Shown one piece after another: positions 11,390 to 51,164 of a stretch of 64,000 nucleotides of DNA. The stretch spans positions 14,632,001 to 14,696,000 of the forward strand of contig NC_090348.1 in the NCBI RefSeq assembly GCF_035084215.1, in the 5' to 3' direction. Origin of the DNA: Heptranchias perlo. Taxonomy: Eukaryota. The notes below the pieces were generated by a model. It was not told the origin of the DNA and searched no databases. It worked only from the letters and a program-made list of their open reading frames with translations. Both the position numbers and the translations under genes were made by a program. Within the stretch, counting starts at the first letter, position 1. Each line of letters begins with the position of its first letter.

Positions 11390-11678
11390 TAGGGATGTCA
11401 CAATATGGGTTTTGATAGTACAATATTCATTTTAAAAATATATTTTGAATAAGGAAAATAGAATAATTCTGATCATTCCTACCATTTTTTTAGAATTATA
11501 ATCTGTCCAGGTTGCCTTAACTGTGTTTTGTTTCACTTCATTACAACATTTTGGTTTATCATGACCATGATTATCTTTATAGGAGAAAATAAATGACTGC
11601 ATTACGATTATGGGGGTGGGGAGGGGGGGTGTTATGTATCAAAATATGTTGGTATATCAAAGTATTATGACATCCCTA
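11390..11678. mobile_element. Non-autonomous DNA transposon (MITE) with terminal inverted repeats
   Basis: Left TAGGGATGTCACAATAT; right end reverse-complements to TAGGGATGTCATAATAC; no clean TSD. Confidence 0.6.
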
Positions 11679-12908
11679 AACAGGAAATGAACAAGCCTGT
11701 CAACACAGCTGTTTTCAAAATGATATCACTGATAAATGACAGTAGTAATACTATAGCCATTCAAACTTGAATGCCCTGGACCTGATAGTACACAGGCTGC
11801 AGAGCCCCTTTTCACTTTTATGATCAATACACCAGTTAAGGCAATTTGTGCTGAATTTAAAGTGCATTTTTATGCTTAATTAAAGTTAGGCTTGACATTA
11901 CTTAGGAATTAAGATTTGTTTTCTACTTCAGCAACCAATACTTTCATGTCAAACAAGTTGTTAACCAACAACGTGCACAGTCTCAAAAATGCCACCTCAA
12001 CCACATCAGAGACACCTTGACTTCATCAGCTGCCAATTCTACATTTTACACATTCAATGGAAGTGAATCAAAAACCTGAAATGAATAAATTATGGGATGT
12101 TTTTGCTACATCCTCATATCTACAAAGTATCAAACTAAGTCTGTGAGAATGTGTTTTACTTGTAATCCTAACCTCATTTAAAATTGAAGCTCTCTGTCAT
12201 TTATTGCTGAGCTGAATTGAAATGTGCTTATCAGCAATATGTTATGCGGCATCACAGGCACTATTTTTGTCTCCTATTCCCTCTTTATTTTGTTGTTTGA
12301 TTTCTAGACCAAATCAACCCAAATTCTACCTCAGGAACAAATGATAGAGAGATCCTCATTATAATGATATTGCTTTGATGTATATTACTCAGTGCAAACC
12401 ATTTTAAACTGGGCAAAGTCACTTTACAAAACATTACACCAAGACAGTCATTCTTGGTATATTGAATTGCTTCATTTTCACTACTATTATTAATGGTTCT
12501 ATTATTTAAAAAGAGGCTCTTTCATGACTCTGTTCACAGCCACCCATCTTGTGTACATTCAGGCCTATGTACAATACGTTTGCCAAGTTGGTCCAGGATT
12601 AAGAATATCTACCAAAACGGTATAACCAGAAAGACATGCCTATATTACATCAGATTTTCTCTCTATCCATATCCTGTACTCAGCTGTAATGATTACAAAT
12701 AAACATCACCAAACCCTAACCCATCCCACTGGTTTTCAGAACCTTCATTGTCAAAGAAACTGCATGCAGCACGCTTCTCAAGTCACATGCAGATAAACGT
12801 TAACCTAAGGAACAATTTCCCAAAAACTAGAAACTCAATTGCTAAAGTAAACATGAGCTGCCAGAAGCCACGTAGATTTTATCAAAGCAGTTCTGCAGCA
12901 TTGGATCA

Positions 12909-12924
12909 TTTATTGCTGTTTATT
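12909..12924 (-). terminator. Candidate polyadenylation signals for KCNA1 copy 1 (two AATAAA)
   Basis: TTTATT twice on + strand ~2.7 kb downstream of the stop; at least one retained in copy 2 (~26463) and both in copy 3 (~39443-39457); no transcript evidence. Confidence 0.3.
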
Positions 12925-15642
12925 GAGTGCAACATTCAAGTCATTTAACACAGGGGAAAATTTTCTCCTACCTCCAGGTTTATGTGATGTAGAAAGGTCA
13001 GGATAACCAGAGTATGGGTGGATTACATATTCTATTTGAAGAAGTTAATGCCCTGTTGCCAACAGCAAATGCAGTTCATCAAGTGTTTTTTCTAAAATCC
13101 TGCATGTAACTTTCATTTATACTCTCAGTTCAGTTGTATCAATTAATTCAGTCATGTAGTCTTGGAGTGGCTTCATTCTTTGTGAAATCTTTTTCTTTTG
13201 CATTCCTTAAATTTCAAAGAAAATACAATTTATAATCAAGTGCCATTATTCATTTTGGGATTTAATCATGTCTTGATCTCTCTGTAGCAGTCTGTACTTT
13301 TCGACGACGAAAACTGTTGCTTGCAATAAACACATCCATATCCAGGTAGAACCCTCTGTCTGAAGACTTGCATGAAGTTAATGACAAAAATGTAACTCCT
13401 GTTTCTCCAGGTCTTTGGGAAATTGCCATATAGTATTCCAAATATTGTTCTAATCGTCTCATGATGTCTTGAGAGCTTCTGGCCTTAAGTAGTATGTCGG
13501 AGTAAGCTGTGATAGGTTTCTGCGTAACAATTAGACCAAGGACAGTGATAGGCTAAACGATAGAAGTTGGCAACATATTATATGTAAGCATTGAAATTAA
13601 CTTGCAGGTGTGGCTCTAGAGAAGATAACAAGGGATATTGAGGAAGAACCTACACTTAAATAGCTGTTTATGTGAATTCAGAGTTACAAACAAAGAATCC
13701 CCTCAGCCTGGAGCCACGCAATGTAACTGTCCTTTTCATCAAGCTAAACTGAGGTAGTCTGCTGAGGAAACTGCATTTCCCTTTTTGGTACATTGGAGAT
13801 TATGCAGGTGAGCAGAAAGACTCGGAGTTAACAATTTTTTGTGTTTTTCAGTTCAACTGTTTAACAACTCATGTTGATGTCATTAAAATCTGTACAATTC
13901 CTTAGCAGGTTGTGAACGCTCATCTAAGTGTAGTTTTTGATAAAATCTAATTTGATGGGGACATCGAAGAAGTTCCAAGAAAGATAATTTATCAGGCAGC
14001 TCTTGCTCAGCTGCAATGTCCAGTTGCTAAGGTGTTCTGCATTTCCTCCGTATCTCTCACCATCTTCTGATCTGCTTTTTCCACTAACTTTTTGCCAAGA
14101 TAACTCCGTTTGTCCTCGCAATTAAAAATTTCCGCCCAGATTGTCGGACAGAAATGAGTTGGTACATTTTCACGGTGTTACAGATTGAGAGGATTTATGT
14201 GGATATCAGCGCATTCAACTTTTCTTTGCACATGGAGGCACTTCCAGCAGTCCGGGAGTGTAAGGATTTGAAAGGCACTAGCAACCAACTACGTAATTTA
14301 CTGAGTTTCTGCAGTAAGGTAGAGGGAAGCTCAAAAAATGTCTTATCTCAATCGGGATAGATTAAGAAACGAGTTGCAAGTTGGAGGCATCATTTACATA
14401 CATTTTACATTTACATTCTGCTAAAATGCACCAAAGGCATGCTTTCTTCTCAGTGTGATTAGTTCCATTTTAAATTAAAACGTATCATATAGAAATAAAT
14501 ACATTATGTAACCCGCTTTAATTTAGTTCAGAGATTTCCCAGAAGTAACTGGGCTCTTTTGCATCATATGTTGAGCGTTGTTACGACGCGAACCAACTGA
14601 TTTCCCTGAAATTCGACAAGAAAATCATCAGGTCCCTCAATGTCCTATCTTTACCGATTAAATCTCTTTTGTAATCTGACGTCATGCATTAGTTATAGTG
14701 GGTTACACATTTCCCTTCCCAAAAAGGCCATAATGTTAAGTAGTTAAACATGCTATGATTTAAAGTTACTCTGTCCCATGCGAGTTAACATTCAGGCAAT
14801 GAGTGTTCGAAGCAATAAATTAAATAATAAGCCATTGCACTTTTGGTGAAAGCAAATAAGATTTAACTCTCCAGAGATGTAATTTAAAAAGCAAACTTCA
14901 TTCCTGTTATTTGAGGTAATGTCCCAAGCATGCCAGGATAAAAGTGAATCTTCAATATCAAGGCATGCTATTTTAGGGATTTTCTTTTTGAACTATGTTT
15001 CTCGCATCAAATTGGGGACAGGGGAATTTTACGTTCAATCCTGGAAGCACATGAATTGCTGAAACTGCAAAATTGCAACACTGCAGTTGTTTTCAGCAGA
15101 TACGTTGTTACATCATAAAGTTCAGGCAAAAGCAGTAACTTGCTTTCTTTGATGAAGTATTTTTCAGCGGACCAAAACCGTCACATCACCTCTCGCAATG
15201 AAATACTCATCAGTAGTGCGAACACTGCAGACGCTTGCAAGTTTCACCAGAACGCAGTCATCTGAAGCATTTGGTTATTTGTTTGTTATTTGGATGCACG
15301 GTGCAGCTTGCAAAATTGCACCTTAACACATGCATTGGTATTTGTAAATGAACTGAGAAAAACGTCCATTCGAGTTTGGTGAACGGGTACAAGTCCAGGT
15401 TTATAAAAAGGTACCTACGGATGCTCACGAGAAGGGATCGGGAAATGTTTTCCCTCGTTACCCAGTTGGAGAAAGAAAGCCATTTAAAAATAAATGAAAA
15501 TATACCTTCCACGTAATTCTGAAAGCTTATTTTGCTGAGCATAACTGCAATGCCACAACTCATCAACGAGGTCAACAAAGCAATACATGGGTCAGTAACA
15601 GTGTCTGGGAAGCATGACTGCCGTCACTGAGCCCGTGGCTCT

Positions 15643-17115
15643 TTAAACGTCAGTCAGCAGTTTGCTCTTATTCACACAATTTTGGTTTGCTACAGTGCAG
15701 TTGCCAGTTCTGAGATTTGCTTCTCTAAAATTATCTATGCTGTTGTTCACGTCTTCCTCGATCTCCATATAGTCCGACTTGCTAATAGTGGAGGAGCTGC
15801 GGCTTCGTAAATCACTGTCCGAAGCAATGTTCGGGCAGCTAACGTGCAGGTACTGAGCCTGCTCCTCCCCTTCGGTCTCCCGGTGGTAGAAGTAGTTGAA
15901 GTTGGAGACGATGACGGGCACGGGCAGGGCGATGGTCAGGACCCCGGCGATGGCACACAAGGATCCCACAATCTTTCCTCCGATGGTGATGGGATGCATG
16001 TCTCCATAACCCACCGTAGTCATGGTGACCACTGCCCACCAGAAAGCTTCTGGGATGCTGGTGAAATAGGACAACCGGTCGTCAGCTTCCGCGAAGAACG
16101 CGGCACTGGAAAACAGAATGACTCCGATAAACAGAAAAAAGATAAGCAGTCCCAGCTCCCTCATACTGGCTTTAAGAGTCTGTCCCAAGATCTGGAGGCC
16201 TTTCGAGTGCCGGGACAACTTGAAAATCCGAAATACTCGAACCAAACGGATAACTCTGAGGATGGCCAGAGAAGTGGTCTGTTCCCCGCTCTTGTTGCCC
16301 TCGGCCTCCTCTGCCAATTCAGTGCCCAGGGTGATGAAATAGGGGATGATCGCCACTATGTCAATGAAATTCATGATGTTCTTGAAGAACTCCGCCTTGC
16401 TGGGACAGGCGAAGAATCTGACTGTCAGTTCGAAGGAGAACCAGATGATGCAGAGTGTCTCCACGATAAAGAAGGGGCCGGTGAGGATGCTGGCTTTGTA
16501 GGTGATGGTGGTGTTCCCGACTTCCATCGTCCGTTCCCTGTCGTCCTTCAGTTCAGGCAGGGTCTCCAGGCAGAAGATGACGATGGAGATTAAAATGACC
16601 ATCACGGAGATGATGGCAATTCCCCTGGCTGGCCCCGAGCTCTCCGGATGCTCGAACAGCAGCCATACCTGGCGCTGGTACTCGTTCTCAGGCAATGGGC
16701 GCTCCTCCTCCCTGATGAACCCTTCGTCCTCCCGGAATTTTTCCATCGCCTCCTCGCCCAGCTCGTAGAATTTAATCTCCTCCGAGAACATCTCCAGCGG
16801 CACATTGACGGGTCTGCGGAGCCGGCCCCCCGACTGGTAATAGTACAGGATGGCATCGAAACTGGGGCGATTCCGGTCGAAGAAATACTCGTTCCGCAAC
16901 GGGTCGAAGTAGCGCATCCTCTTCTTGGGGTTTCCCAGCAGGGTGTGGGGGAATTGGGCCAGGGTCTTGAGCTGGGTCTCGAACCTCAGCCCTGAGATGT
17001 TGATGACCACCCGCTCACAACACTCGTGGTCATCGTGGTCCGGCGGGTAGCTGTCCTGAGGGTGGCCGGGCAAAGCCGAGGCTTCGTCTATGTTGTCGCC
17101 GGCGAGAACCGTCAT
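15643..17115 (-). CDS. KCNA1: Voltage-gated potassium channel Kv1.1 (Shaker-related subfamily A member 1), copy 1, 490 aa
   Basis: Kv1.1-type N-terminus ([26 protein letters not shown]), T1 domain, S4 [20 protein letters not shown] filter, PVPVIV hinge, and Kv1.1-specific C-terminus [14 protein letters not shown]; uninterrupted CDS. Confidence 0.97.
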
Positions 17116-17535
17116 CCTGCCGGCCGACGGCGTTCAGTGGGGCGATTTGGCTGGGTCCGATTCACTGACTGCTACTCCCCCGCGATCGGACATTCGGAGG
17201 CAGCACTTTGGAGGGGGTGGGGAGGACGGTTGGGGCTCGAAGGGAGAACGGGTCTAACGGATCACTCTGGGTTTTCTGGCTGATTTAACCATTGTGGGAC
17301 TCAGCACTTCAAACGGATCCAAGTGATCTCAGCAGCTCAGCAAATTCCGTGGCGTTTCTTCCCCTCAGGACCAAAGTGCTGCGGAATACAAAAGGTTAGC
17401 ATAAAACAAAACTGAACTTAACATAAATGGGCAAATGTTGGACCCTATGTGAATGGAGCTCATGCACTGAAGAGTTTTCCAGCAGCCCGGACCTCGCGTT
17501 CTTACATCTTCGCAGAAGGCAGCGAATGGTTTTCG

Positions 17536-17645
17536 CTGGAAAAAAAACAGCTGCAGTATTAGGATAGGAGGGAGGAGGAGGAGGAGCAGGAGGAACTCTG
17601 CAACTGCAGGGTTCACTTGGAGCGAAGTGAAAAATAAACCCTTAC
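17536..17645 (-). other. Predicted 110-nt 5'UTR intron of KCNA1 copy 1
   Basis: Minus strand CAG|GTAAGG donor, C/T-rich tract, CTAAT branch-like site and TTTTTTTTCCAG acceptor; agrees with the two-exon KCNA1 layout known in mammals. Confidence 0.65.
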
Positions 17646-18464
17646 CTGATAAGTAAAGGAGGACAAAATGAACAGTGCAGGAATGCGACCCAGCCTCGGA
17701 GCAATGCAAAGCTTTCCTGCGTACTTCTACCTCGCTTTACTATGGATATCGGTTTACAGCTTTGTGTGTATGAGATCTGCTGAAATATTAATAGCCTATA
17801 TTATACTGTACTGACACCATTTACAAGTCATTTGTTCCTGACGTTGGTTGCAGCAAGCAGCGGTCTAGGTTAAGAATGAAAACTCGCCGGCGCTGTTTTA
17901 AAACACCACCAATTAAAGTGCAGAGAAAAAATACGTTAAACTGTGCACACGGACTTCATGGCAGGTTACGGAAAAAGATCTTCTGGTACAGCATCCTGGC
18001 CCCTTGTTGAAGGCTCATGTGGTGCAGTGTGGAAGACTGAATACATTAAAGCCAAGCGAGCTGGTCATCCCCTAGCATTGCAGTGTCAGCAAAAAATAAA
18101 TAAGAGCAGTGTTTTGTGGAGTGTAGACAGGGCACCGTTCTCCGGCCAGTAACCTCACAGCTCCAGCAAAGCAGGTCCCACATTACAGTGAGAACAGCCG
18201 CTTCCTAAAAAAAATCTCTACTATTTCTCACATACGAAAAATTGAGATATTTTAGACGCAGTGCAGACAACCCGGTAAAATCCTCAGTGCACACGACGCC
18301 GTGCACACTCGCAAAAAAAACGCACCATAAACATGAAAACTGCTGCATCATTTGGTTAGATTTTACGACAATGTTCCTTTGACTGCAGCTCACTGTAGCA
18401 AACCTTCGAACCCAATCACTGCAGCGCGAGTTCAGCCGGCAGGTACAATGTTACTGTACGGAGA

Positions 18465-18571
18465 TATATATGCAGCAAGCAGCCATACAACAGCCCACAT
18501 TAATTGTAAACAGTTACAGGGATGGACTGTCTTACAGTCTTTTCAATGTTTAATAGGCCAATGCCCCGCCC
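18465..18571 (-). promoter_or_regulatory. Putative core promoter of copy 1 (TATA-like, CCAAT, GC box)
   Basis: TATATAT at 18465-18471, CCAAT at 18558-18562 adjacent to GCCCCGCCC at 18563-18571, in a CpG-containing region upstream of the gene. Confidence 0.4.
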
Positions 18572-18831
18572 TTTATTTGCTCAAGATTAGCAAAACAGAT
18601 CAATTGTTCCCATCACACATAATTTTAAACTGTCAACAGAATATTAAGTGTTGGACATAATCTTGATAAGATTGCTAACACAGCGCGCTGATGATGTTTT
18701 AACTGAAGTATCGACAACTTGAGAAATACGATTTTGTTGGTGTATCTATAAAAAAATCTCATCCTCTCCCCGTTTATATTATATTCCCACAATTTTACTT
18801 AAACTTGAAAGAACAAACGCGCAGTCAGTTA

Positions 18832-20996
18832 CAGAATCAAAGAAAGGTTGTAACACGGAAGGAGGCCACTCGGCCCACCGAGTCCGCGCTGGCTCTGTGC
18901 AACACCAATCCAGCTCGTCCCACTCCCCCGCACTATCCCCATAACCCTGCATTTTTTTCCTTTCAAGTATTTATCCAGTTCCTTTTTGAAGGCCATGATT
19001 GAATCTCCACCACCCCCTCAGGCAGTGCATTCCAGATCCTGACCACACCCTGCCTGGAAAAGTTTGTCCTCATGTCACCTTTGGTTCTTTTGCCAATCAC
19101 CTTAAATCTATGTCCTCTGGTTCTTGACCCTTTCACCAATGGGAACAGTTTCTCTCTATCTACTCTGTCTAGACTCTTCATGATTGTGAATACCTCTATC
19201 AAATCTCCTCGCAACCATCTCTGTTCCATGGAGAACAATCCCAGCTTCTCCAGTTTATCCACGTAACTAAAATCCCTCATCCCTGTAATCATTCTGGTAA
19301 ATCTCTTCTGCACCCTCTCTAAGGCCTTCACATCTTTCCTAAAGTGCAGTGCCCAGGACTGGACACACTACTCCAGTTGTGGCCAAACCAGTGTTTTAGA
19401 AAGGTTCATCATGACTTCCATACTTTTGTACTCTATGCCTCTATTTATAAAGCCCAGGATCCCGTATGCTTTTTTAACCGCTTTCTCGACCTGCCCTACC
19501 ATCTTCAACGATTTGTGCACATAGACCCCCAGATCTCTCTGTTCCTGTACCCCTTTTAGAGTTGTGCTCTCCAGTTTATATTGCCTCTCCTCGTTCTTCC
19601 TACTGAAATGTATCACTTCACATTTTTCTGCGTTAAATTTCATCTGCTACGGTGTCCGCCCATGTCACCAGCCTGTCTATATCCTCTTGAAGTCTATCAC
19701 TATCCTCCTCACTGTTCGCTACACTTCCAAGTTTTGTGTCATCTGCAAATTTTTAAAATTGTGCCCCCTACACCCAAGTCCAAAGTCATTAATATATATC
19801 AAGAAAAGCAGTGGTCTCATCACCGAACCCTGGGGAACACCACTTGTACACCTCCCTCCAGACCAAAAAACAACCTTTCACCACCACTCTCTGTTTCCTG
19901 TCACTTAGCCAATTCTGTATCCATGTTGCTACTGCTCTCTTTATTCCATGGGCCGCAATCTTGATGATAAGCCTACCATGCGGCACTTTATCAAACGCTT
20001 TTTGAAAGTCCATATCAACTGCATTGCCCTCATCTACCCTCTCTGTTAACTCATCAAAAAACTCTATCAGGTCAGTTAAACATGATTTTCCTTTAACAAA
20101 TCCATGCTGGCTTTTCCTAATCAATCCAACTCATCCAAGTGACTGTTAATTCTGTCCCGGATTATCGTTTCTAAAAGTTTCCCCACCACTGAGGTTAAAC
20201 TGACTGATCTATTGTTGCTGGGTTTATCCTTACACCCTTTTTTGAAAAAGGGTGTCGCATTTACAATTCTCCAGTCCTCTGGCACCGCCCCCGTATCTAC
20301 GGATGTTTGGAAGATTATGGCCAGCATCTCCACAATTTCCACTCTTACTTCCCTCAGCAACCTAAAATGCATCCCATCCGAACCGGGTGATTTATCTACT
20401 TTAAGTACAGCTAGCCTTTTTAATACCTCTTCTTTATCAATTTTTAGCCCATCCAGTATCTCAACTACATCTTCCTTGACTGAGACTCTGGCAGCATCTT
20501 CTTCCTTGGTAAAGACAGTTGCAAAGTACTCATTTAGTACCTCAGCCATCCCCTCTGCCTCCATGAGTAGATCTCCTTTATGATCCCTAATCGGCCCCAC
20601 CCCTCCTCTTACTACCCATTTACTGTTTACATGCCTGTAGAAGGCTTTTGGATTCCCCTTATGTTGGCCATCAGTCTATTCTCATACTCTCTCTTTGCCC
20701 CTCTTATTTCCTTTTTCACTTCCCCTCTGAACTTTCTATATTCAGCCTGGTTCTCACTTGTGTTATCAACCTGACATCTGTCATACACCCCTTTTTTCCA
20801 TTTCATCTTACTCACTATCTCTTTTGTCATCCAGGGAGCTCTGGCTTTATTTGCCCTATCTTTCTGCCTCATGGGAATGTGCCTAAACTGTACCCGAACC
20901 ATCTCCTCCTGAAAGGACGCCCTCTGTTCAATTACGGTTTTGCCTGCTAAACTTTGATTCCAATTTACCTGGGCCAGATCTGTTCTCATCCCATTG
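18832..20996 (-). mobile_element. 5'-truncated CR1-clade LINE, specific to unit 1
   Basis: Broken ORF2 pieces (KSQHGFVKGKSCLTDLIEFF..DFQKAFDKVPH; KFNAEKCEVIHF; LERVQKRFTRMI); inserted into cagtta|aaaagaaaatgcgc, which is empty in units 2 and 3. Confidence 0.93.
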
Positions 20997-21555: not shown

Positions 21556-21906
21556 TAGGGTTGCCAACCATCCAGGATTGTCCTGGAGTCTCCAGGAATT
21601 ATAGAATAAGTAGCCCAAGAGAGAAATCCTGGGGGTATTAAAAATATGCTTTTTTTTTCATTTTCTTTGAACACTTTTGTTTATTAGTTAGAAAAATATT
21701 GAAGGTGCCAAAAAAAGACTGTTTGACTGACAGTCAAGAATCATCCAATCGGGTAATGAAGTATCTGTTTGCTTTCCAATTATCATGGGAAGGTGGTCGG
21801 ACGTGTGGGATGACCAATGGCGGGAGCATTGGGGCGGGGCAGTTAGAAGCGGGAGGTCACGTGATGAAACCTCCAGGAATATGTCCAAGCAAAGTTGGCA
21901 ACCCTA
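21556..21906. mobile_element. hAT-type MITE (unit 1 copy)
   Basis: TIRs TAGGGTTGCCAAC...GTTGGCAACCCTA; degenerate 8-bp TSD ggacccct/gggccccc (ggaccccc in unit 2). Confidence 0.75.
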
Positions 21907-22916
21907 GGGCCCCCCCACTAGGGGCCCTATGATCGCAGCTCATCATAACCTTAAGCAGCGTTGCCTGCCGGTTGCATTAATTGAAATGCAGAGCTGGCAG
22001 TGACTGGAATTTGGGAGTGGTTGGGGGTGGGGTGTTAGTTACCTGACTGTGGTCGTGCTTGTGCCTTGTGTCCCAGACGTGGTGCCATGAGCTGGAAGAC
22101 GTGTTGGTGAGCAGATTGGGAAGACTGGAAGACCCCGTCATATCAGGGTGGGAAGATGTGGTGGAAGAATTTCTAGATGCTTCTGGAGCTCTTCTGGAGA
22201 TTGACTATGTAATCTTTAGATATTTTATTACATATTTGTGCTTTAATGGTTGGGGCGGCGGTGGGGGAATGTTCTTCATACCCAGGGCCCCAAGACTTCT
22301 TAATGCAGCCCTGGACATAATCCAAAAATTCTGCAGATGGTGGAGGCTTCAGAATCATTAGCACCAATTAGATATTTTGTACAATACATATAGGTTATCT
22401 ACATTGTCTTGTTCAACAACGTAACATGATAAATAAATCCAGAAATGAGGTGTCTCTCCCATTGGAGGACAAATTGTTAAGTGGGTTATGGTCAGATACA
22501 GAGCAAGAACAAGAGGCCTTACAACTGATGCATATCCTTAATAAGTGCAATGAATGGTCCTTAAGGCACATATCTGTGGGGAAACAAAACTCAACTCTTA
22601 GAAAATATATGTATGGAGACTTTGAGGTCACAGACCTTTTCTTTGTTCTCTCTCTCTCTTCTTGTTCCACCAATGAAGCAAAATAATTAGATATATGTTC
22701 CATCATATGAAGGTACCATGGGGGAGGGCAGGAGGAAGTTCTTGAATTGAAATGACTGTTCTTATTGGCAGCGCAATTAGCCATTCCATGACATGAAGAG
22801 CTGGGGGTGGGGCAAAGATTAAGCATTTGGCTCACAGTCTTTCTCTGGGTGAAAAAGTGAGTCTGTATTAGCTGGGTTGTGATATAAGTGTTAGGTTCCT
22901 TACCATCCTTACCATC

Positions 22917-23364
22917 AGCCGTGGCTCAGTAGCAGCTCTCTCGCGTCTGAGTCAGGTTGAGGGTTCAAGTCCCACGCCAGAGCTTTGAGCACAAAATCTT
23001 GGCTGACATTCCAGGGCAGTACTGAGGGAGTGCTGCACGGTAGGACATGCTGTCCTTCAGATGAGATAATAAATCGAAGACCCATCTGCTCTCTCAGTTG
23101 GACATAAAAGATGCAATGGCATTATTTCAAAGAAATTCTGCCCAGTGACCTGGCCAATATTTGTCCCAAAACCAACATCACAAATAAAGATTATCTGGTC
23201 ATTATCACATTGTTGTTTGTGGGACCTTGCTGTGTGCAAATTGGCTGCTGTATTTCCTACATTACAACAGTGACTACACTTCAGAAGTACTTGATTGGTT
23301 GTAAAGCGCTTTGGGGCATCCTGAAGTTGTGAAAGACACAATATAAATGCAAGTCTTTCTTTCA
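22917..23364 (+). mobile_element. tRNA-derived SINE, Deu-domain (SacSINE1-like)
   Basis: A box TGGCTCAGT, B box GGTTCAAGTCC, central gtactgagggagtgctgcac...cagatgaga domain, and tail gtaaagcgctttggggcatcctga...ataaatgcaagtctttcttt. Confidence 0.8.
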
Positions 23365-24386
23365 TTCTTTTAGAGAAGTTAAACTTCAACATAAGAAACA
23401 AAATGAATCACAGCAATACCCCAGTAATTTAAATAGAGGGAGATTCTCTAACACATTAGCATATTGACATCATCCCATCAAGGAAAACACCTGTGGGCAG
23501 TGTCCATTTAAGAAATTTGTACTCTGTTCAACAAGGTAAATTTTCTCCTATTTTGACACATTAAATGCTTAGTTCAAGATTTTGTCAAGTACTTTTACAG
23601 AAGGAGGCAGTATTAAGGCCCCATATAACAAGAGCACTGGAAGGTAATACAGTAGCACACTAGAGCAGCTTCTGACAGCACAAGGTCAGAAAGGGAACTG
23701 AGGGATAAGCTGTGAAGGGGTTTTGGTTCTGGAGGCTGAACTTCTTTCAAAAGCATGAGGAGGACAACAGTGTCAGGAGAAACTCAGAACTCCCTTCCTG
23801 AACCCTTAAGAACAGAATTCCATCCAAAACCTTTGGCTGCCAAAACATTATCTATCAACCTCTAAACTTATACTCTACTCCCATTGCCTCCCTCAGAAAT
23901 CTATTCCACACGTTCATCACTCTTTGCATGAAGAATTCATACCATGAGGGTAACTTAGTATTCTTCTTTGTTTGTTCAAAAAATGGAGTATACCAGATTA
24001 GTACAAAAAAAACTGATGGTACTTTAAGAATCTATATCTTCAGGCCACTTTGGAGCATGGCAATAAAAATGTTGCCTGTCTTGACTATCAAATCAAAAGA
24101 TTGTATACTGCTCCAAGTAGCTGCCTTACAGATTGTCTGAAGTGAATTCCCCTGCTCTTTGGCCTATAAAGTGGCTGCTGCACAAATAGAGTGAGCTTTA
24201 ATTTTTTTGCAGGGTCTTGTTCTTCAAGGAAGTAACACAAGAACAAAGTTCATTACCAGCTTTTCCAGTCTTTGTCAGCAACAAGTTTACCAAAAGTCTT
24301 GATTAATGCATCTTTTGATAATATGCATTAACTAAAGGAAGAAATATGAGGTGATAGATAAACTTTTGCACCATTCGACAAACAAA

Positions 24387-24602
24387 CAGTTCGAGCATTA
24401 CCCTATCCAAAGCCAGTTTAAGAACTACCCTATTGAAATCCAGCCTGAGAAACAACCTATTCAAAGTCAGCTTGAGAAGCACCCTATCAATAGCCAGCAT
24501 AAAATCCACCCCATCCAAAGGCAGCATTAGAACCACCCTATGAGTAGCCAGCTTGAGAAGTACCTTATCCAAAGCCAGCTTGAGAACCATCCAAATCACA
24601 TG
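24387..24602. repeat. Degenerate 27-bp tandem repeat, ~8 copies
   Basis: Consensus cagcttgagaaccaccctatccaaagc; gives the 9-aa periodic ORF 24303-24599. Confidence 0.85.
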
Positions 24603-32458: not shown

Positions 32459-32499
32459 ATTTGCCTGAGGAAGGAGAAAATCTCCGAAAGCTTGTGAAT
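32459..32499 (+). ncRNA. Minimal type I hammerhead ribozyme motif (right PLE arm)
   Basis: AUUUGC-CUGAGGA(32465-32471)-A-GGAG-AAAAU-CUCC-GAAA(32486-32489)-GCUU-GUGAAU, followed by AATAAA at 32504-32509. Confidence 0.7.
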
Positions 32500-32617
32500 T
32501 TAAAATAAAATTGCTGGACTATAACTTGGTGTTGTAAAATTGTTTACAATTGTCAACCCCAGTCCATCACCGGCATCTCCACATCACATCTTCGCAGAAG
32601 GCAGCGAATGCTTTTCG

Positions 32618-32727
32618 CTGGAAAAAAAACAGCTGCAGTATTAGGATAGGAGGGAGGAGGAGGAGGAGCAGGAGGAACTCTGCAACTGCAGGGTTCACTT
32701 GGAGCGAAGTGAAAAATAAACCCTTAC
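32618..32727 (-). other. Predicted 110-nt 5'UTR intron of KCNA1 copy 2
   Basis: Same donor, branch and acceptor signals as copy 1. Confidence 0.65.
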
Positions 32728-33547
32728 CTGATAAGTAAAGGAGGACAAAATGAACAGTGCAGGAATGCGACCCAGCCTCGGAGCAATGCAAAGCTTTCCT
32801 GCGTACTTCTACCTCGCTTTACTATGGATATCGGTTTACAGCTTTGTGTGTATGAGATCTGCTGAAATATTAATAGCCTATATTATACTGTACTGACACC
32901 ATTTACAAGTCATTTGTTCCTGACGTTGGTTGCAGCAAGCAGCGGTCTAGGTTAAGAATGAAAACTCGCCGGCGCTGTTTTAAAACACCACCAATTAAAG
33001 TGCAGAGAAAAAATACGTTAAACTGTGCACACGGACTTCATGGCAGGTTACGGAAAAAGATCTTCTGGTACAGCATCCTGGCCCCTTGTTGAAGGCTCAT
33101 GTGGTGCAGTGTGGAAGACTGAATACATTAAAGCCAAGCGAGCTGGTCATCCCCTAGCATTGCAGTATCAGCAAAAAATAAATAAGAGCAGTGTTTTGTG
33201 GAGTGTAGACAGGGCACCGTTCTCCGGCCAGTAACCTCACAGCTCCAGCAAAGCAGGTCCCACATTACAGTGAGAACAGCCGCTTCCTAAAAAAAATCTC
33301 TACTATTTCTCACATACGAAAAATTGAGATATTTTAGACGCAGTGCAGACAACCCGGTAAAATCCTCAGTGCACACGACGCCGTGCACACTCGCAAAAAA
33401 AAACGCACCATAAACATGAAAACTGCTGCATCATTTGGTTAGATTTTACGACAATGTTCCTTTGACTGCAGCTCACTGTAGCAAACCTTCGAACCCAATC
33501 ACTGCAGCGCGAGTTCAGCCGGCAGGTACAGTGTTACTGTACGGAGA

Positions 33548-33654
33548 TATATATGCAGCAAGCAGCCATACAACAGCCCACATTAATTGTAAACAGTTAC
33601 AGGGATGGACTGTCTTACAGTCTTTTCAATGTTTAATAGGCCAATGCCCCGCCC
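33548..33654 (-). promoter_or_regulatory. Putative core promoter of copy 2
   Basis: TATATAT 33548-33554, CCAAT 33641-33645, GC box 33646-33654. Confidence 0.4.
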
Positions 33655-34445
33655 TTTATTTGCTCAAGATTAGCAAAACAGATCAATTGTTCCCATCACA
33701 TAATATTCTGTTGACAGTTTACAATTAAGTGTTGGACATAATCTGATGATGTTTTAACTGAAGTATCGGCAACTTGAGAAATACGATTTTGTTGGTGTAT
33801 CTATAAAAAACTCTCATCCTCTCCCCGTTTATATTATATTCCCACAATTTTAACTAAACTTGAAAGAACAAACGCGCAGTCAGTTAAAAAGAAAATGCGC
33901 TAAAAACGTAACCAGGACATTCTTGCGTTTTGATGGCCTTCAATTTGAAAACAGCGAAAACAGAGCATCTGCGTGAACTTCAAATGGTTCTGGAAATCGA
34001 TCGAGCCTGACAATTAACAGAGAAAGGGCCGTCACTGGACTCGGGAGTTAATGTTTCACCAGTTATGTAATTTGACTGATGCCAATCCACGTTACCAGAA
34101 GGCGCTGTTCACAGTCCCATTTGGGGTTCGCAACCTCCGACACCACAACACGTATATTTTATTTGAGAATTCTTAATTCAAGGCTGTTTACTGGCGAATT
34201 CTTCCTCACTGTTGGTAAAAGCTTAGAATGTGAAGTAGAGAAAGAAATGATTACCAGCTGCTGCAACTCCTTGTTTGTGAATTTGATGGTTAGCCATTAG
34301 GTCTGTTTCTACAGTGAGTTTATATGACCACAGTGTGTTAACTCTAAATGCTCCGAACAGAAATAAACTATATAAACTGTAACATAACCAGAGACGTATA
34401 AATGCACGGGAATACACGGCCTATGCCTCGGAAACTCGGCCTCTT

Positions 34446-34899
34446 TGGGTTGCCAATTATCCAGGGTTGTCCTGGAGTCTCCAAGAGTTCACCATCACCT
34501 TCTCAAGGGCAATTAGGGATGGGCAATAAATGCTGGCCTCAATCTGCTCACAGCCACGCCCAAATCCCATGAACGAACAAAACAAAATATCCAGGATACT
34601 ACTATAAGCAGGCCAAGGGAGAAACCCTGCCGGTATTAAAAACGTTTTTTTTTCATATTCGTTGAACACTTTTGTTTATTAGTTAGGAAAATATTGAAGG
34701 TGCCAAAAATAGGCTGTTTGACTGACAGTCAAGAATCATCCAATCGGGTAATGAAGTCTGCTTGCTTTCCAATTATCATAGGAAGGAGGTCCTACATGTG
34801 GGATGACCAATGGCGAGAGCATGGGGGTGGGGCGGTTAGAAGCGGGAGGTCACGTGATGAAACCTCCAGGAATATGTCCAAGCAAAGTTGGCAACCCTA
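34446..34899. mobile_element. hAT-type MITE (unit 2 copy) with a nested LINE 3' tip at ~34490-34585
   Basis: gggttgccaa...gttggcaacccta termini; internal caccatcaccttctcaagggcaattagggatgggcaataaatgctggcc is absent from unit 1 and matches the element at 61.9 kb. Confidence 0.7.
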
Positions 34900-35928
34900 G
34901 GACCCCCATTTGGGGCCCCATGATCGCAGCTTATCATAACCTTAAACAAGGTTGCCTGCCGGCTGTATTAATTGGCATGCACCGACAGAAGTGACTGGAA
35001 TTTGGGTGTTGGGGGCGTTGGGGGGGCAGGGGAAGACATGGGAGGTTAGTTACCTGACTGTGGTTGCGCTTGTGCCTTGTGCCCCAGACATGGTGCCATG
35101 ACCTGGAAGACGCAGTTGAAGAAACCTGTGAGCAGATTAGGAAGACTAGAAGACCCCATCCAATCGGGGGGGGGGGGGGGGCAGAGATGGTGGAAGAATT
35201 TTTAGATGCTTCTGGAGCTCTTCTGGAGATTGAATATTTAATCTTTTTAAGACATTTTATCACATGTTTGTACTTAAATGGATGGGTGGGGGTGGGGAAA
35301 TGTTCTTCATACCCAGGACCCCAACAGTTCTTGATGTAGTCCTGGACATAATCCAAAAATTCTGCAGATGGTGGAGGTTTCAGAATCATTAGCACCAATT
35401 TGATATTTTATACAATACATATAGGCTATCTGCATTGTCTTGTTCAACAATGTAACATGATAAATAAATCCAGAAATGAGGTGTCTCTCCCATTAAATGA
35501 CAAATCATTAAGTGGGTTGTGGTCAGACACAGATCAAGAACAAGAGGCCTTGCAACTGATGCGTATCCTTAATAAGTGCAATGGACGCTCCTTAAGGCAC
35601 ATATCTGTGGGGAAACAAAACTCAACTCTTAGAAAATATATGTATGAAGACTTTGAGGTCACAGACCTTTTTTTGTTCTCTGTCTCTTTTTGCTCCAACC
35701 AATGAAGCAAAATAATTTTATATATGTTCCATCGGGGAGGGCAGGAGGAAGTGCCTGAATTGAGGTGGCTGTTCTTTTTTGCAGTGCAATTAGCCAATCA
35801 GTGACAAACAGCTGGTGGTGGGGCAAAGATTAAGTAGTTGGCTCACTGCCTTTATCTGGGTGAAAAATGTGAGTCTGTAGTAGCTGTGTTCTGATATAAA
35901 TGTTAGGTTCCCTACCATCCTTACAGTC

Positions 35929-36380
35929 AGCCGTGGCCCAGTGGCAGCTCTCTCTTGCCTCTGAGTCAGGTTGTGGGTTCAAGCCCCACGCCAGAGCTTT
36001 GAGCACAAAATCTAGGCTGACATTCCAGTGCAGCACTGAGGGAGTGCTGCACGGTAGGACATGCTGTCTTTCAGATGAGACATGAAACCAAAACCCCATC
36101 TGCTCTCAGGTGGATGTAAAAAATCCCATGCCACTATTTCGAAGAGGAGCAGGGAAATTCTGCCCAGTGTCCTGGCCAATATTTGTCCCAAAACCATCAC
36201 AAAAAAAAATCTGGTCATTTTCACATTGTTGTTTGTGGGACTTTGCTGAGTGCAAGTTGGCTGTTGCATTTCTTACATTATAACAATGACTACACTTCAA
36301 AAGTACTTGATTGGTTGTAAAGCGCTTTGGGGCATCCTGAAGTTGTGAAAGACGCACTATAAATGCAAGTCTTTCTTTCA
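35929..36380 (+). mobile_element. tRNA-derived Deu-type SINE, paralogous to 22917-23364
   Basis: Same flanks and structure as the SINE in the first spacer. Confidence 0.8.
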
Positions 36381-39300
36381 TTCTTTTAGAGAAGTTAAAC
36401 TTCAACATAAAAAACCAAATGATTCACAGCAATACCCCAGTAATTTATATAGAGGGAGATTCTCTTTCACCATAGTGTTCCCACATAGAATATTGACATC
36501 ATCCCATTAAGGAAAACACCTGTGGATAGTGTCCATTTAAGAAATTTGTACCCTGTTTAACAAGGTACATTTTCTCCTATTTTGACATATTAAATGCTTA
36601 GTTCAAGATTTTGTCAAGTGCTTTTACAGAAGGAGGCAGTATTAAGGCCCCATATAACAAGAGCACTGAAAGGTAATAAAGTAGCTCACTAGAGCAGCTT
36701 CTGAGTGCACAAGGTCAGAAAGGGAATTGAGGGTGTATGATGGGAAGGGATTTTGGTTCTGGAGGCTGAACTTCTTTTAAAAACATGAGGAAGACAACAA
36801 TGTCAGGAAAAACTCAGAAATCCCTTCCTGACCCTCAAGGAAATTAAGCCAGTTGCATAGTTTCCCATGATACATCAGTAGATGTTTCTAGGAACATAAG
36901 ATTAGAAGGCCAGAAAAGACAATTTCCATCCATTGAGATATAGAAACCCTTCAATAGCCCTGGCTGCCAAAACACTATCCATCACCCACTAAATGTATAA
37001 CCTACTCTATTCCCACTGCTGCCCTCAGAAATCTAGTCCACATATTCACCACTCTTTGCATGAAGAATTTATAACAAGAGGGTAACGTAGTATTCTTCTT
37101 TGTTTGTTCCAAAAAATGGAGTTTTTCAGAGTAGTACAAAAAAAAACTGATATTACTTTAAGAATCTACATCTTCAGGCCAGCTTGGAGCATGGCAGCAA
37201 AAATGTTGTCTAACCTGACTGTCAAATCAAAAGATTGTATATTGCTCTAAGTAGCTGCCTTGCAGATTGTCTGAAGTGAATTCCCCTGCTCTATGCCCCA
37301 TAAAGTGGCTGCTGCACAAATAGAGTGAGCTCTAATTTTTTGCAGGGTCTTGTTCTTCCAGGAAGTGACACAAGAACAAAGTCCATTACCAGTTTTTCCA
37401 GTCTTTGTCAGTAACAGGTTTACCAAAAGACTTGATTAATAAATCCATTTATTCTATTTATATAAAAGGATAATGCTTTATACGCATTAACTAAAAGAAG
37501 AAATATGAGGTGATAGATAAAATTTTGCACCATTCAACACACAACCAGCTTGAGAACTACCCTATGAGTAGTCAACTGAGCCTACCACTAAAGCGTGCAG
37601 CTTACTAATTGTCCTTGGCAAGAAAAACAACAGTAAAATAACAGCGCAGAGTGAAACAAACTAAAGTTTGCACAATTAGGCTTAAGCATTAGCTTGCTCA
37701 GAACCAAATCAGAGGCAACCTGAGCAACAAAGGGTCGCACTTTTTAGATATTCTTTATAAATGAAGATATCCAAGGGAAAAGTGATTCTGCAAAAGCTCG
37801 GTACATCATTCCGGTTTTTGCTTCCATCAGTCCTTACAAAGTATCACCTCTTGAATTCAACCAGTGAAGTCATTACCCACTGTGCATTTTGTCCAAAATG
37901 AAGCATTTTTGTCTGTGATGGATTATGTTTTGGGTTTTTCCTGGCTGGTCACAATACACACATGGTTAGAGTCAGATACTTTTGGAATAATTCTGATCAA
38001 TTCTACCATTTTATTAGAAATATAATCTGTCCATGTAAAGTCTTTCACAGTTGCCTTAACTGAGTTTTCTTTCACTACATTACAATATTTTGGTTTATCG
38101 TGGCTACAATCATCTTCATAGAAGGAAATAAATGACTGCATTACGATTATGATTATGGGGAGTTTATGTATCACAGTATGTTGGCATATCAAACTATTAA
38201 GAGATCCCTAAACAGGAAATGAACAAGCCTGTCAACACAGCTGTTTTCAAAATGATATCCCTGATAAATGACAGTAGTAATACTATAGCCATTCAAACTT
38301 GAATGCCCTGGACCTGATGGTACACAGGCTGCAGAGCCTCTTTTCACTTTTATGATCAATACACCAGTTAAGGCAATTTGTGCTGAATTTAAAGTGCATT
38401 TTTATGCTTAATTAAAGTTAGGCTTGACACTACTTAGGAATTAAGATTTTTTTTCTACTTCAGCAACCAATACTTTCATGTCAAACAAGTTGTTAACCAA
38501 CAATGTGCACAGTCTCAAAAATGCCACCTCAACCACATCAGAGATGCCTTGACTTCATCAGCTGCCAATTCTACTTTTTACACATTCAACGGAAGTGATT
38601 CAAAAACCTAAAATGAATAAATTATGGGATGTTTTTGCTACATCCTCATATCTACAAAGTATCAGACTAAGACTGTGAGAATATGTTTTACTTGTGATCC
38701 TGACACATTTAAAATCGAAGCTCCCTGTCACTTATTGCTGAGCTGAATTGAAATGTGCTCATCAGCAATATGTTATGCTACATCACGGGCACCATTTTGT
38801 CTCCTATTCTCTCCTTTTTTTATTGTTTGATTTCTAGATCAAATCAACCCAAATTCTACCTCAGAAACAAATGATAGAGACATCTTCATTATAATGATAT
38901 TGCATTGATGAATATTATTCAGTGCAAACCACTTTAAACTGGGCAAAGTTACTTTACAAAACATTACACCAAGACAGTTATTCTTGGAATATTGAATTGC
39001 TTCAATTTCACGACTATTATTAATGGTTCTATTTTTTAAAAAAAGAGGCTCTTTCATGACTCTGTTCACAGCCACCCATCTTGTGTACATTCAGGCCTAT
39101 GTACAATATGTTTGCCAAGTTGGTCCAGGATTAAGAATATCTACCAAAACGGTATAACCAGAAAGACATGCCTATATTATATCAGATTTTCTCTCTATCC
39201 ATTTCCTGTACTCAGCTGTAATGATTACAAATAAACATCACCAAACCCTAACCCATCCCACTGGTTTTCAGAACCTTCATTGTCAAAGAAACTGCATGCA

Positions 39301-42189: not shown

Positions 42190-43662
42190 TTAAACATCAG
42201 TCAGCAGTTTGCTCTTATTCACACAGTTTTGGTTTGCTACAGTGCAGTTGCCAGTTCTGAGATTTGCTTCTCTAAAATTATCTATGCTGTTGTTCACGTC
42301 TTCCTCGATCTCCATATAGTCCGACTTGCTAATAGTGGAGGAGCTGCGGCTTCGTAAATCACTGTCCGAAGCAATGTTCGGGCAGCTAACGTGCAGGTAC
42401 TGAGCCTGCTCCTCCCCTTCGGTCTCCCGGTGGTAGAAGTAGTTGAAGTTGGAGACGATGACGGGCACGGGCAGGGCGATGGTCAGGACCCCGGCGATGG
42501 CACACAAGGATCCCACAATCTTTCCTCCGATGGTGATGGGATGCATGTCTCCATAACCCACCGTAGTCATGGTGACCACTGCCCACCAGAAACCCTCTGG
42601 GATGCTGGTGAAATAGGACGTCCGGTCGTCAGCTTCCGCGAAGAACGCGGCACTGGAAAACAGAATGACTCCGATAAACAGAAAAAAGATAAGCAGTCCC
42701 AGCTCCCTCATACTGGCTTTAAGAGTCTGTCCCAAGATCTGGAGGCCTTTCGAGTGCCGGGACAACTTGAAAATCCGAAATACTCGAACCAAACGGATAA
42801 CTCTGAGGATGGCCAGAGAAGTGGTCTGTTCCCCGCTCTTGTTGCCCTCGGCCTCCTCTGCCAATTCAGTGCCCAGGGTGATGAAATAGGGGATGATCGC
42901 CACTATGTCAATGAAATTCATGATGTTCTTGAAGAACTCCGCCTTGCTGGGACAGGCGAAGAATCTGACTGTCAGTTCGAAGGAGAACCAGATGATGCAG
43001 AGTGTCTCCACGATAAAGAAGGGGCCGGTGAGGATGCTGGCTTTGTAGGTGATGGTGGTGTTCCCGACTTCCATCGTCCGTTCCCTGTCGTCCTTCAGTT
43101 CAGGCAGGGTCTCCAGGCAGAAGATGACGATGGAGATTAAAATGACCATCACGGAGATGATGGCAATTCCCCTGGCTGGCCCCGAGCTCTCCGGATGCTC
43201 GAACAGCAGCCATACCTGGCGCTGGTACTCGTTCTCAGGCAATGGGCGCTCCTCCTCCCTGATGAACCCTTCGTCCTCCCGGAATTTTTCCATCGCCTCC
43301 TCGCCCAGCTCGTAGAATTTAATCTCCTCCGAGAACATCTCCAGCGGCACATTGACGGGTCTGCGGAGCCGGCCCCCCGACTGGTAATAGTACAGGATGG
43401 CATCGAAACTGGGGCGATTCCGGTCGAAGAAATACTCGTTCCGCAACGGGTCGAAGTAGCGCATCCTCTTCTTGGGGTTTCCCAGCAGGGTGTGGGGGAA
43501 TTGGGCCAGGGTCTTGAGCTGGGTCTCGAACCTCAGCCCTGAGATGTTGATGACCACCCGCTCACAACACTCGTGGTCATCGTGGTCCGGCGGGTAGCTG
43601 TCCTGAGGGTGGCCGGGCAAAGCCGAGGCTTCGTCTATGTTGTCGCCGGCGAGAACCGTCAT
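42190..43662 (-). CDS. KCNA1: Kv1.1 copy 3, 490 aa, differing by L348T and A357G
   Basis: Translation as copies 1/2 except [18 protein letters not shown] versus [18 protein letters not shown]. Confidence 0.97.
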
Positions 43663-44085
43663 CCTGCCGGCCGACGGCGTTCAGTGGGGCGATTTGGCTG
43701 GGTCCGATTCACTGACTGCTACTCCCCCGCGATCGGACATTCGGAGGCAGCACTTTGGAGGGGGTGGGGAGGATGGGTGGGGGCTCTAAGGGAGAACGGG
43801 TCTAACGGATCACTCTGGGTTTTCTGGCTGATTTAACCATTGTGGGACTCAGCACTTCAAACGGATCCAAGTGATCTCAGCAGCTCAGCAAATTCCGTGG
43901 CGCTTCTACCCCCCTCAGGACCAAAGTGCTGCGGAATACAAAAGGTTAGCATAAAACAAAACCGAGCTTGACATAAATGGGCAAATGTTGGACCCTATGT
44001 GAATGGAGCTCATGCACTGAAGAGTTTTCCAGCAGCCCGCACCTCGCGTTCTTACATCTTCGCAGAAGGCAGCGAATGCTTTTCG

Positions 44086-44195
44086 CTGGAAAAAAAACAG
44101 CTGCAGTATTAGGATAGGAGGGAGGAGGAGGAGGAGCAGGAGGAACTCTGCAACTGCAGGGTTCACTTGGAGCGAAGTGAAAAATAAACCCTTAC
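44086..44195 (-). other. Predicted 110-nt 5'UTR intron of KCNA1 copy 3
   Basis: Same splice signals as copies 1 and 2. Confidence 0.65.
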
Positions 44196-45121: not shown

Positions 45122-45905
45122 TTTATTTGCTCAAGATTAGCAAAACAGATCAATTGTTCCCATCACATAATATTCTGTTGACAGTTTACAATTAAGTGTT
45201 GGACATAATCTGATGATGTTTTAACTGAATTATCGGCAACTTGAGAAATACGATTTTGTTGGTGTATCTATAAAAAACTCTCATCCTCTCCCCGTTTATA
45301 TTATATTCCCACAATTTTAACTAAACTTGAAAGAACAAACGCGCAGTCAGTTAAAAAGAAAATGCGCTAAAAACGTAACCAGGACATTCTTGCGTTTTGA
45401 TGGCCTTCAATTTGAAAACAGCGAAAACAGAGCATCTGCGTGAACTTCAAATGGTTCTGGAAATCGATCGAGCCTGACAATTAACAGAGAAAGGGCCGTC
45501 ACTGGACTCGGGAGTTAATGTTTCACCAGTTATGTAATTTGACTGATGCCAATCCACGTTACCAGAAGGCGCTGTTCACAGTCCCATTTGGGGTTCGCAA
45601 CCTCCGACACCACAACACGTATATTTAATTAGAGCATTCTTAATTGAAGGCTGTTTACTGGCAAATTCTTCCTGTTGATAAAAGCTTAGAATGTGAAGTA
45701 GAGAAAGAAATGAGCAACTCTTTGGTTATGAATTTGATGGTCAGCCATTAGGTGTGTTTTTACAGTGAGTTTATATGGCCATAGTATGTTAACTCCGAAT
45801 GCTCCCAACAGAAAAGGCCATAAACTGTAACATAACCAGGGACGCCTTAATGCACAGGCCTACGGGACCTACGCCTAGGGACTTCGGTCAAATATGGAGA
45901 CCCCT

Positions 45906-46003
45906 TAGAAAAAAAGCTGACTGACATGACGAGAGCGTAGGGCTTGGAGGCAGGAGATCATGTGATGAAAACTCCAGAAATATGTCCAGAGTTGGCAACT
46001 TTG
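45906..46003. mobile_element. Internally deleted remnant of the hAT MITE (unit 3 copy)
   Basis: Same flanks (gacccct|tag ... gttggcaact|..ggaacccc) with only ~100 bp retained. Confidence 0.55.
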
Positions 46004-47039
46004 GAACCCCTGCCAGGGGCTCCATGATCGCAGCTCATCATAAACTTAAACAGCGTTGCCTGCCAGTTGCGTTAATTCTCATGCACAGCAGGCAGTGACT
46101 GGAATTTGGTCCCGGGGTGGGTTAGTTATCTGACTGCGGTCGCATTGTCGCCTTGTGTCCCACAGTTTGCGCCTTGTGTGGAAGATACGGTTGAAAAAGC
46201 CTGTGAGCAACTTTGCCAATAAGAACAGTCACCTCAACTGATGAACTTCTCCCCCCTCCCCCAACCATGGCACCTACATTATCTGTTCAACTAAGACTCC
46301 TGTATTAAAATTTATGAAACCGTTCCAACATTTTATCCAATTCCCCTCTGGAATGCACTAATGAACCCCATTGTCTCAAACGGCTACAGTATGCGAGAAA
46401 CACACTCTGTTAGCTACTTTGTCTGTTCCCAACTAATGGATCTAATACACATTCTAGATTGCTGGTGCGTTGCTGGCACATATCCCCCTGTAGGCCAAAT
46501 TTACCTTAATAGCAATATCACAATATAAACGAACCCAAAATTCCTCCTAGGCCAAATAGGCAAAGATCTTAAAACCTGGCAGGCAAGCACCTCATTGGTT
46601 CTTTTGCCCATCACTGCAAGCAATAGGTAGTCCTTGGGGTACAGTTTAGCTTATGTACACAGCACTTGAGTCAGTGTGCCTTTACCCCTCTCTACCAGCC
46701 TGTTAATCTGAGGGTGGTTCAACGCAATTTTATCAGAAAATATTGCTACAAGTGTGTAATTGGCTGAGACATAAAACTAGCCTCCTGCTCAGACAGAATG
46801 TCTTCTGGAAATGCAACCCAAGTAAACATTTCTAACGACACATCCATGTCCATTAACACAAGTACAGTGTCCAGATACCTGGATGTGTAATCTACCATGG
46901 TCAATATGTTCTATTTCCCCAAATTACTTCTGAAAGGCATGGGGACGAAGATTCCTTATCCTCCTTCTTAAAAGATGGTGTTTTGTTGTGATCCCCAGCT
47001 TATGATATTCTGGCATTAATCACGTCCTACAAAATTTGT

Positions 47040-51160: not shown

Positions 51161-51164
51161 TTCC

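Follow-up and report, generated by a model that had tools for sequence, protein, structure and literature searches.

A tandem array of three KCNA1 genes with homogenised gene bodies and a remodelled outer pore in Heptranchias perlo

Results

Three intact KCNA1 genes lie head-to-tail

A 64,000-nucleotide stretch of the Heptranchias perlo genome (contig NC_090348.1, positions 14,632,001 to 14,696,000; hereafter the window) carries on its minus strand three intact 490-codon open reading frames (ORFs) of KCNA1, which encodes the potassium channel Kv1.1. They lie head-to-tail between window positions 15643 and 43662, and ORF prediction and self-BLAST confirm the three complete frames of a preliminary description of this DNA. 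Self-BLAST delimits the whole three-unit array to 11459..46209 (minus strand), with units of ~13-13.5 kb each and unit offsets of ~13.5 and ~13.0 kb. The coding sequences (CDSs), defined by ORF and alignment and all on the minus strand, occupy 15643..17115 (copy 1, 490 amino acids, with L348 and A357), 29245..30717 (copy 2, same protein as copy 1) and 42190..43662 (copy 3, with T348 and G357). The CDSs are uninterrupted and specify the features of a KCNA1 member, namely a T1 domain, a six-transmembrane ion-transport domain and the TVGYG filter; Pfam recovered the full BTB_2 and Ion_trans architecture on copy 3, and channel topology was assigned from motifs and alignment to the solved Kv1.2. 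An RNA-family search found the RF00485 potassium-channel RNA-editing signal in all three copies (112.9 bits), at 15901..16014, 29503..29616 and 42448..42561 (minus strand). The H374 codon falls within this intact signal, and the equivalent of the I400V editing site is I395.

The preliminary description had also given every copy its own promoter, 5' untranslated region (5'UTR) intron and 3'UTR. A donor-like CAG/GTAAGG and an acceptor-like CCGCAG/ are indeed present 5' of each ATG, and AATAAA sites follow each copy at matching distances, while promoters and 5'UTR introns are only predictions. On splice-like motifs, the predicted intron would span 17379..17645 in copy 1 and 43929..44195 in copy 3 (267 nt each) and 30984..32727 in copy 2 (1744 nt, containing an insertion described below), all on the minus strand. 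Searching the window by tblastn with four queries revealed no fourth copy, fragment, pseudogene or other KCNA gene, so that synteny with KCNA5 or KCNA6 is not visible there. In tetrapods KCNA1 is one gene of a KCNA6-KCNA1-KCNA5 cluster, as the preliminary description held and as PMC1978502 reports, and six KCNA genes were described from a partial elephant shark genome (PMC3141671).

In a 29-row tree the copies fell within the KCNA1 clade with support of 100/100, and not with KCNA2, KCNA3, KCNA5 or KCNA6, in line with their original assignment to a single Kv1 paralogue. The chondrichthyan KCNA1 clade received 98/93 and the grouping of the copies with elasmobranchs 95/88; when the three outer loops were removed from the alignment, the KCNA1 clade still received 100/99. 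The full tree placed the window copies outside a skate and two sharks (100/95), and since this placement was lost without the three outer loops we did not accept it as a sign of hidden paralogy. Among the best 120 of 3393 hits, the full-length named proteins closest to the window copies are chondrichthyan KCNA1 from Mustelus (94%), Rhincodon (94%), Amblyraja (93%) and Callorhinchus (90%), and both window protein variants are present in the searched protein database, on a chromosome-scale contig. Among the compared chondrichthyans, I376 and D448 are common to the window gene and the two sharks only, a hint of shark affinity. At codons 27, 188 and 357 the window has H, E and A, as do Callorhinchus and bony vertebrates, where the skate and both sharks have N, Q and S, a pattern that may reflect reversal, convergence or an early-branching lineage.

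The units are anciently diverged outside the genes

The spacers of the three units differ by many substitutions. Divergence in the 3' spacers amounts to 8.9% (units 1/2), 8.1% (1/3) and 8.2% (2/3), and the junction blocks located by self-BLAST and alignment at 21591..25007 (units 1/2) and 34590..37985 (units 2/3) are 10.9% diverged from each other. Most of the block is found at each internal junction and has no counterpart at the outer edges of the array, a distribution consistent with one duplication and later unequal exchange. Given a nucleotide diversity of 0.002 in the epaulette shark (PMC10587355), the flank divergence of 8-11% is about 40-55 times that value, so that alleles cannot explain the spacers. 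At the epaulette shark rate of 7e-10 per generation (interval 1.4-14.1e-10; PMC10587355), the corrected distance of 0.085 translates into at least ~30 million generations, a rough figure because the rate is that of another species. The array is old and is expected in relatives too.

Two units carry private insertions. That of unit 2 (31110..32586, 1477 bp, recognised by its arms and empty sites) is palindromic, with arms matching at 97% over 372 nt and 99% over 359 nt, and has a short target-site duplication and two inverted GIY-YIG-like fragments; units 1 and 3 show clean empty sites at the same point. The GIY-YIG match (E=2.5e-4, 21.7 bits) lies just below the 22.6 cut-off and comes without a reverse transcriptase part; the insertion is a putative Penelope-like element. 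Its near-perfect palindrome with 0.7-kb arms sits in the predicted copy-2 5'UTR intron, where it would form a long double-stranded RNA that could affect splicing, editing or expression of copy 2. The insertion of unit 1 (18832..20994, 2165 bp; BLAST and alignment) resembles a decayed long interspersed nuclear element (LINE) at 51253-52568, in which an ORF at 51319-52008 gives a weak RVT_1 match (E=0.0024), and is presumably a CR1-type LINE.

These data bear out the argument of the preliminary description, based on spacer substitutions and unit-specific insertions, that the amplification is real. A false haplotype duplication, or a collapse or polishing step that homogenised the gene bodies or made two copies three, could be suspected because units 2 and 3 share runs at 100% identity that exceed 1.5 kb, non-coding DNA included. 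Such an artefact would, however, have to accommodate three spacer pairs that are all 8-9% apart with mosaic site patterns, well above reported shark diversity, an insertion with a target-site duplication that faces empty sites in both other units, and variants private to each copy inside the homogenised tracts. The sequence thus favours real amplification over haplotype duplication, and an assembly artefact is unlikely, in our estimate strongly so.

Gene bodies evolve in concert except for a turret island

The gene bodies are far more alike than the flanks. Per 1473 nt of CDS, only 2 (copies 1/2), 6 (copies 1/3) and 4 (copies 2/3) differences were found, and none of the 209 four-fold degenerate sites differs between copies 1 and 2, where the flanks predict 15-19 differences (P about 4e-7 to 7e-9). 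For the three pairs, the longest identical runs extend over 1547, 1152 and 1519 alignment columns, versus maxima of 238, 263 and 426 in 2000 shuffles. Identity shifts abruptly at tract borders. In the alignment, one homogenised tract at 27413..34159 pairs unit 2 with ~40358-45626 of unit 3, the two differing over ~5270 aligned bp by 8 substitutions, a single 1-bp indel and the transposon insertion, and a shorter tract at 15265..18617 links unit 1 with units 2 and 3. Unit 1 matches the other two closely only over these ~3.3 kb around the gene, with differences of 0.1-0.4% in the CDS, 2.2-2.5% in the 5'UTR/intron and 0.2% in the upstream exon region, the remaining 3' region being 9.6% different. 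Site patterns in the spacer favour now one grouping and now another, a mosaic expected from older conversion tracts. The alignments show gene bodies that have evidently been kept near-identical by gene conversion as the spacers drifted apart, and the history of the units is very probably that of an old duplication of one KCNA1 unit, with a third unit gained when unequal exchange duplicated the junction, and with repeated non-allelic conversion ever since.

Only two amino acids differ between the copies, L/T348 and A/G357, both in the turret/pore stretch. All four coding differences of copy 3 from copy 2 fall in a 29-bp island (42593..42621, minus strand; partner 29648-29676 in copy 2) that covers codons 348-357, i.e. 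the turret and the start of the pore helix. Of the 8 substitutions that separate units 2 and 3 within their tract, the island holds 4 (p=5e-5 when counted singly); with adjacent changes merged, the probability that 2 or more of 6 events land in the 111-bp pore loop is 0.006.

Window-specific substitutions concentrate at the outer face of the channel

Alignment of the window proteins with their chondrichthyan orthologues identified 19 window-unique residues: the pore/turret loop (37 residues) has 7 of them, the S1-S2 loop 6, the S3-S4 loop 2, the membrane segments 3 and the cytoplasmic tails a single one. The share in the pore loop (7/19) exceeds that of the four other cartilaginous fishes (3/50; Fisher p=0.003), whereas the share in the cytoplasmic tails is smaller (1/19 versus 24/50; p=0.0007). 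When sites were weighted by their variability in the 43 named bony-vertebrate KCNA1s among the 120 listed, 0 of 20000 draws reached 7/19, and copy 1 considered alone gave 6/18 (p=0.0004). Bony lineages pooled have 37 of 489 unique residues in the pore loop, the nearest cases being lungfish (5/44) and rattlesnake (4/22).

Mapped onto mouse Kv1.1 numbering, the altered positions are A352 (R347 in the window), E353 (L/T348), H355 (Y350), D361 (E356), A362 (A/G357), S369 (T364) and Y379 (H374). The window proteins thus lack the canonical A352/E353/Y379 outer pore, of which position 352 is already Pro in other chondrichthyans. Among 47 other KCNA1s, H379 occurs in none, T369 in one and E361 in four; the combination R352, L/T353, E361, T369 and H379 is found in no other protein compared, and a search with residues 335-385 returned no other protein more than 88% identical (best 120 of 1604). 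The turret carries a charge of -3 per subunit, versus -5 in all four other chondrichthyans. Outside the pore, D213G and A280T, at the ends of the S1-S2 and S3-S4 loops, affect sites conserved in 42/43 and 43/43 bony KCNA1s, respectively.

Comparable pores were observed elsewhere. The KCNA2-like protein of Callorhinchus milii, on a long branch (0.39), has a basic residue at 352, a hydrophobic one at 353, D361E and S369T, unlike three elasmobranch KCNA2-like proteins; its changes parallel those of the window Kv1.1, and convergence in a second chondrichthyan Kv1 gene is possible. In KCNA1 of the rattlesnake Crotalus adamanteus, the 4 pore-loop residues among 22 lineage-unique ones include D361E, which may reflect resistance of the snake to its own venom.

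Other features of the window

Minisatellites with units of 27/54 bp and 41 bp lie at 24400-24589 (unit 1/2 junction) and 10981-11148 (just outside the 3' edge of the array), respectively; the 27-mer is nearly absent from the unit 2/3 junction. Upstream of copy 3, a cluster of decayed LINE fragments at 48395-56700 coincides with the loss of similarity to the other units. Antisense ORFs of 199 amino acids were rejected as genes because they are shadows of the CDS, and a tRNA scan of the window found none.

Discussion

The preliminary description of this locus stands as far as the array, its orthology and its authenticity are concerned, but it missed the concerted evolution and the remodelled outer pore, and these change what the array most likely does. 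For the cause of the outer-face changes, as distinct from the triplication, the conversion and the concentration of changes at the outer face, all of which are directly visible, we infer, tentatively and at rather less than even confidence, target-site resistance to pore-blocking peptide toxins that was spread by conversion, with the extra copies providing dosage. We put toxin resistance first because toxin effects or contacts have been published for the positions of five of the seven pore-loop changes, because the surface-favouring Pro at 352 has been lost, and because divergence between copies survives only in the turret, as in the sodium pump gene ATP1A1 of Leptodactylus discussed below. 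The substitutions are concentrated at known toxin-contact residues: A352, E353 and Y379 form the dendrotoxin site, and the A352P/E353S/Y379H exchange raises the half-maximal inhibitory concentration of the anemone toxin APEKTx1 on Kv1.1 from 0.9 nM to 10.8 uM and causes a tenfold shift for DTX-K (PMC3721222). In a simulated Kv1.1-ShK complex the contacts include E353, D361 and Y379 (PMC3705375), and Shaker F425, equivalent to H355 (Y350 here), influences scorpion-toxin binding (PMC9539455). General support only comes from other channels, where toxins are repelled by basic residues of the turret (PMC6600638).

In the mechanism we propose, selection would act on the extracellular mouth of Kv1.1 for weaker binding of pore-blocking peptide toxins made by marine prey or competitors that are venomous. 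With Arg gained at A352, the acidic residue lost at E353, and D361E and Y379H in addition, toxin contacts would be removed or altered; these changes make each turret two charges less negative. Conversion would carry the pore changes to all copies, and any loss of current would be offset by S369T, which improves delivery to the surface, and by the additional gene copies. By retaining its T348/G357 turret against conversion, copy 3 would allow mixed tetramers of two turret variants to form in cells. That the locus represents natural venom-peptide resistance of a vertebrate Kv1 channel in this full form, with a conversion-spread pore, two selected turret variants and mixed tetramers resisting more than one toxin class, is a more speculative proposition that we regard as doubtful.

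Several observations weigh against toxin resistance. The branch leading to the window copies (0.048, versus 0.056 for skate from the same node) is ordinary. The comparison set consists of four chondrichthyan orthologues only (Mustelus, Rhincodon, Amblyraja and Callorhinchus), region borders were chosen after the alignment had been seen, and tests were made on three regions. The S1-S2 and S3-S4 loops, off the pore-blocker site, hold eight of the 19 changes, and the charge of the S1-S2 loop is -1 versus +2 in three elasmobranchs, i.e. more negative. The turret varies widely among fishes as well (K352 in 16/43, G353 in 9/43, V379 in 14/43), and bare clustering in the 29-bp island is not significant when adjacent changes are merged (p=0.15). 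Moreover, His is the Kv1.3 residue at the 379 equivalent, and in the ShK simulation Kv1.3 retains binding by way of an F27-H404 contact (PMC3705375); for the spider toxin HWTX-XI Y379 is the chief contact and turret swaps including E353T have a small effect (PMC13030696). Finally, the same residues govern retention in the endoplasmic reticulum (ER) and inactivation, so position alone cannot separate toxin resistance from tuning of the channel.

Selection for a larger or differently gated Kv1.1 current is a possible if uncertain alternative, not far behind toxin resistance, which covers the earlier idea that the array raises dosage or serves electroreceptors. Here the three copies would supply dosage, S369T and the change at 379 would relieve ER retention, and H379 with the S1-S2 and S3-S4 loop changes would alter inactivation or activation, for example in electroreceptors or fast axons. 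Surface levels of Kv1.1 are raised by A352P, strongly by S369T and further by S369T/Y379K (PMC10383195), and position 379 is key for C-type inactivation, with His in Kv1.3, the most inactivation-prone Kv1 (PMC9032944, PMC9539455). The changes D213G and A280T hit highly conserved sites outside the pore, and homogenised copies would suit a dosage role. Skate ampullae transcribe Kv1.1 (bioRxiv 10.1101/274449), and kcna1 transcripts are present in catshark ampullae, where they were not flagged as specific and only kcnab3 was both specific and strong (PMC11979771); a weakly electric fish offers a tandem KCNA7a duplication (PMC10029256). On the other hand, the surface-favouring Pro352 of all four other chondrichthyans is lost here, Kv1.2 S371T/V381T alone leaves inactivation close to wild type (PMC9539455), and the changes at 353, 355 and 361 and the turret island of copy 3 are left unexplained. 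Toxin resistance and tuning of current can both hold.

Neutral amplification under relaxed constraint, with extra copies tolerated and substitutions accumulating by drift, would fit the ordinary total branch length and the natural variability of turret residues. Tandem arrays also arise easily in repeat-rich genomes. Yet all three ORFs are still intact after 8-11% flank divergence, the tails, which are the most variable parts in other lineages, hold 1 of the 19 changes, and conversion would expose each change in all copies, so that redundancy shelters little; we consider such drift unlikely. Slightly less attractive still, and in our view improbable, is the acquisition of the pore loop from another KCNA paralogue of the KCNA3 type through ectopic conversion, followed by spread through the array. 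T364, H374 and the T348 of copy 3 are Kv1.3 residues, and GC content at third codon positions is 0.57-0.63 over codons 281-385 versus 0.77-0.91 upstream. But R347, L348, Y350, E356, A339 and G357 are not Kv1.3 residues, at most 4 of 7 diagnostic positions are matched outside the window (291 proteins with a pore motif), and the best identity over residues 335-385 outside the window is 88% among the 120 proteins listed. The pores of the three elasmobranch KCNA2-like proteins compared do not match either, and these three were rejected as donors.

The preliminary description holds KCNA1 to be dosage-sensitive in neurons. A term search of PMC7215408 found a 'low functional reserve' passage and no match for haploinsufficiency or duplication. 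Except after whole-genome duplication, KCNA1 is given as a single-copy gene, which makes a maintained triplication unexpected. Kv1 channels are heavily targeted by venomous marine animals, and the toxin-resistance literature among the matches listed concerns sodium channels, the sodium pump and ligand-gated receptors. Among the matches listed by the literature searches on the array and on Kv1 resistance, in a collection that lacks most subscription journals, none reports this array or Kv1 resistance in a shark. The locus offers two natural channel variants together with a near ancestral-type control (94% identical). If selection acted on gating, it would be a natural experiment on the trafficking and inactivation code of Kv1.1, with relevance to episodic ataxia and epilepsy, and on either reading the locus clearly illustrates an island that is protected amid conversion tracts.

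Compared with known systems, the array shares with vertebrate KCNA1 its orthology, single-exon CDS, conserved filter and S4 and RNA-editing signal, as well as a length of 490 amino acids that is also found in whale shark and skate, and it differs by having three copies instead of one and by R352, L/T353, E361, T369 and H379 in the outer pore. The ATP1A1 genes of Leptodactylus (bioRxiv 10.1101/2020.08.04.234435) likewise constitute an old tandem ion-transport duplicate that is homogenised by non-allelic conversion and retains copy differences at an extracellular toxin-binding site. There, however, one copy is resistant and one ancestral and resistance was measured, whereas all three copies of the array described here share most derived residues and differ at two. 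The engineered Kv1.1 A352P/E353S/Y379H (PMC3721222) is altered at the same three positions relative to mammals, with an identical Y379H, but the natural channel has Arg at 352, where other chondrichthyans have Pro, and Leu or Thr at 353. Within the family, the nearest precedent is the tandem KCNA7a pair of the mormyrid Campylomormyrus compressirostris (PMC10029256), likewise a tandem Kv1 duplicate in a fish that combines an identical part with a diverged one, which involves another paralogue and lineage, comprises two copies and is tied to the electric organ discharge.

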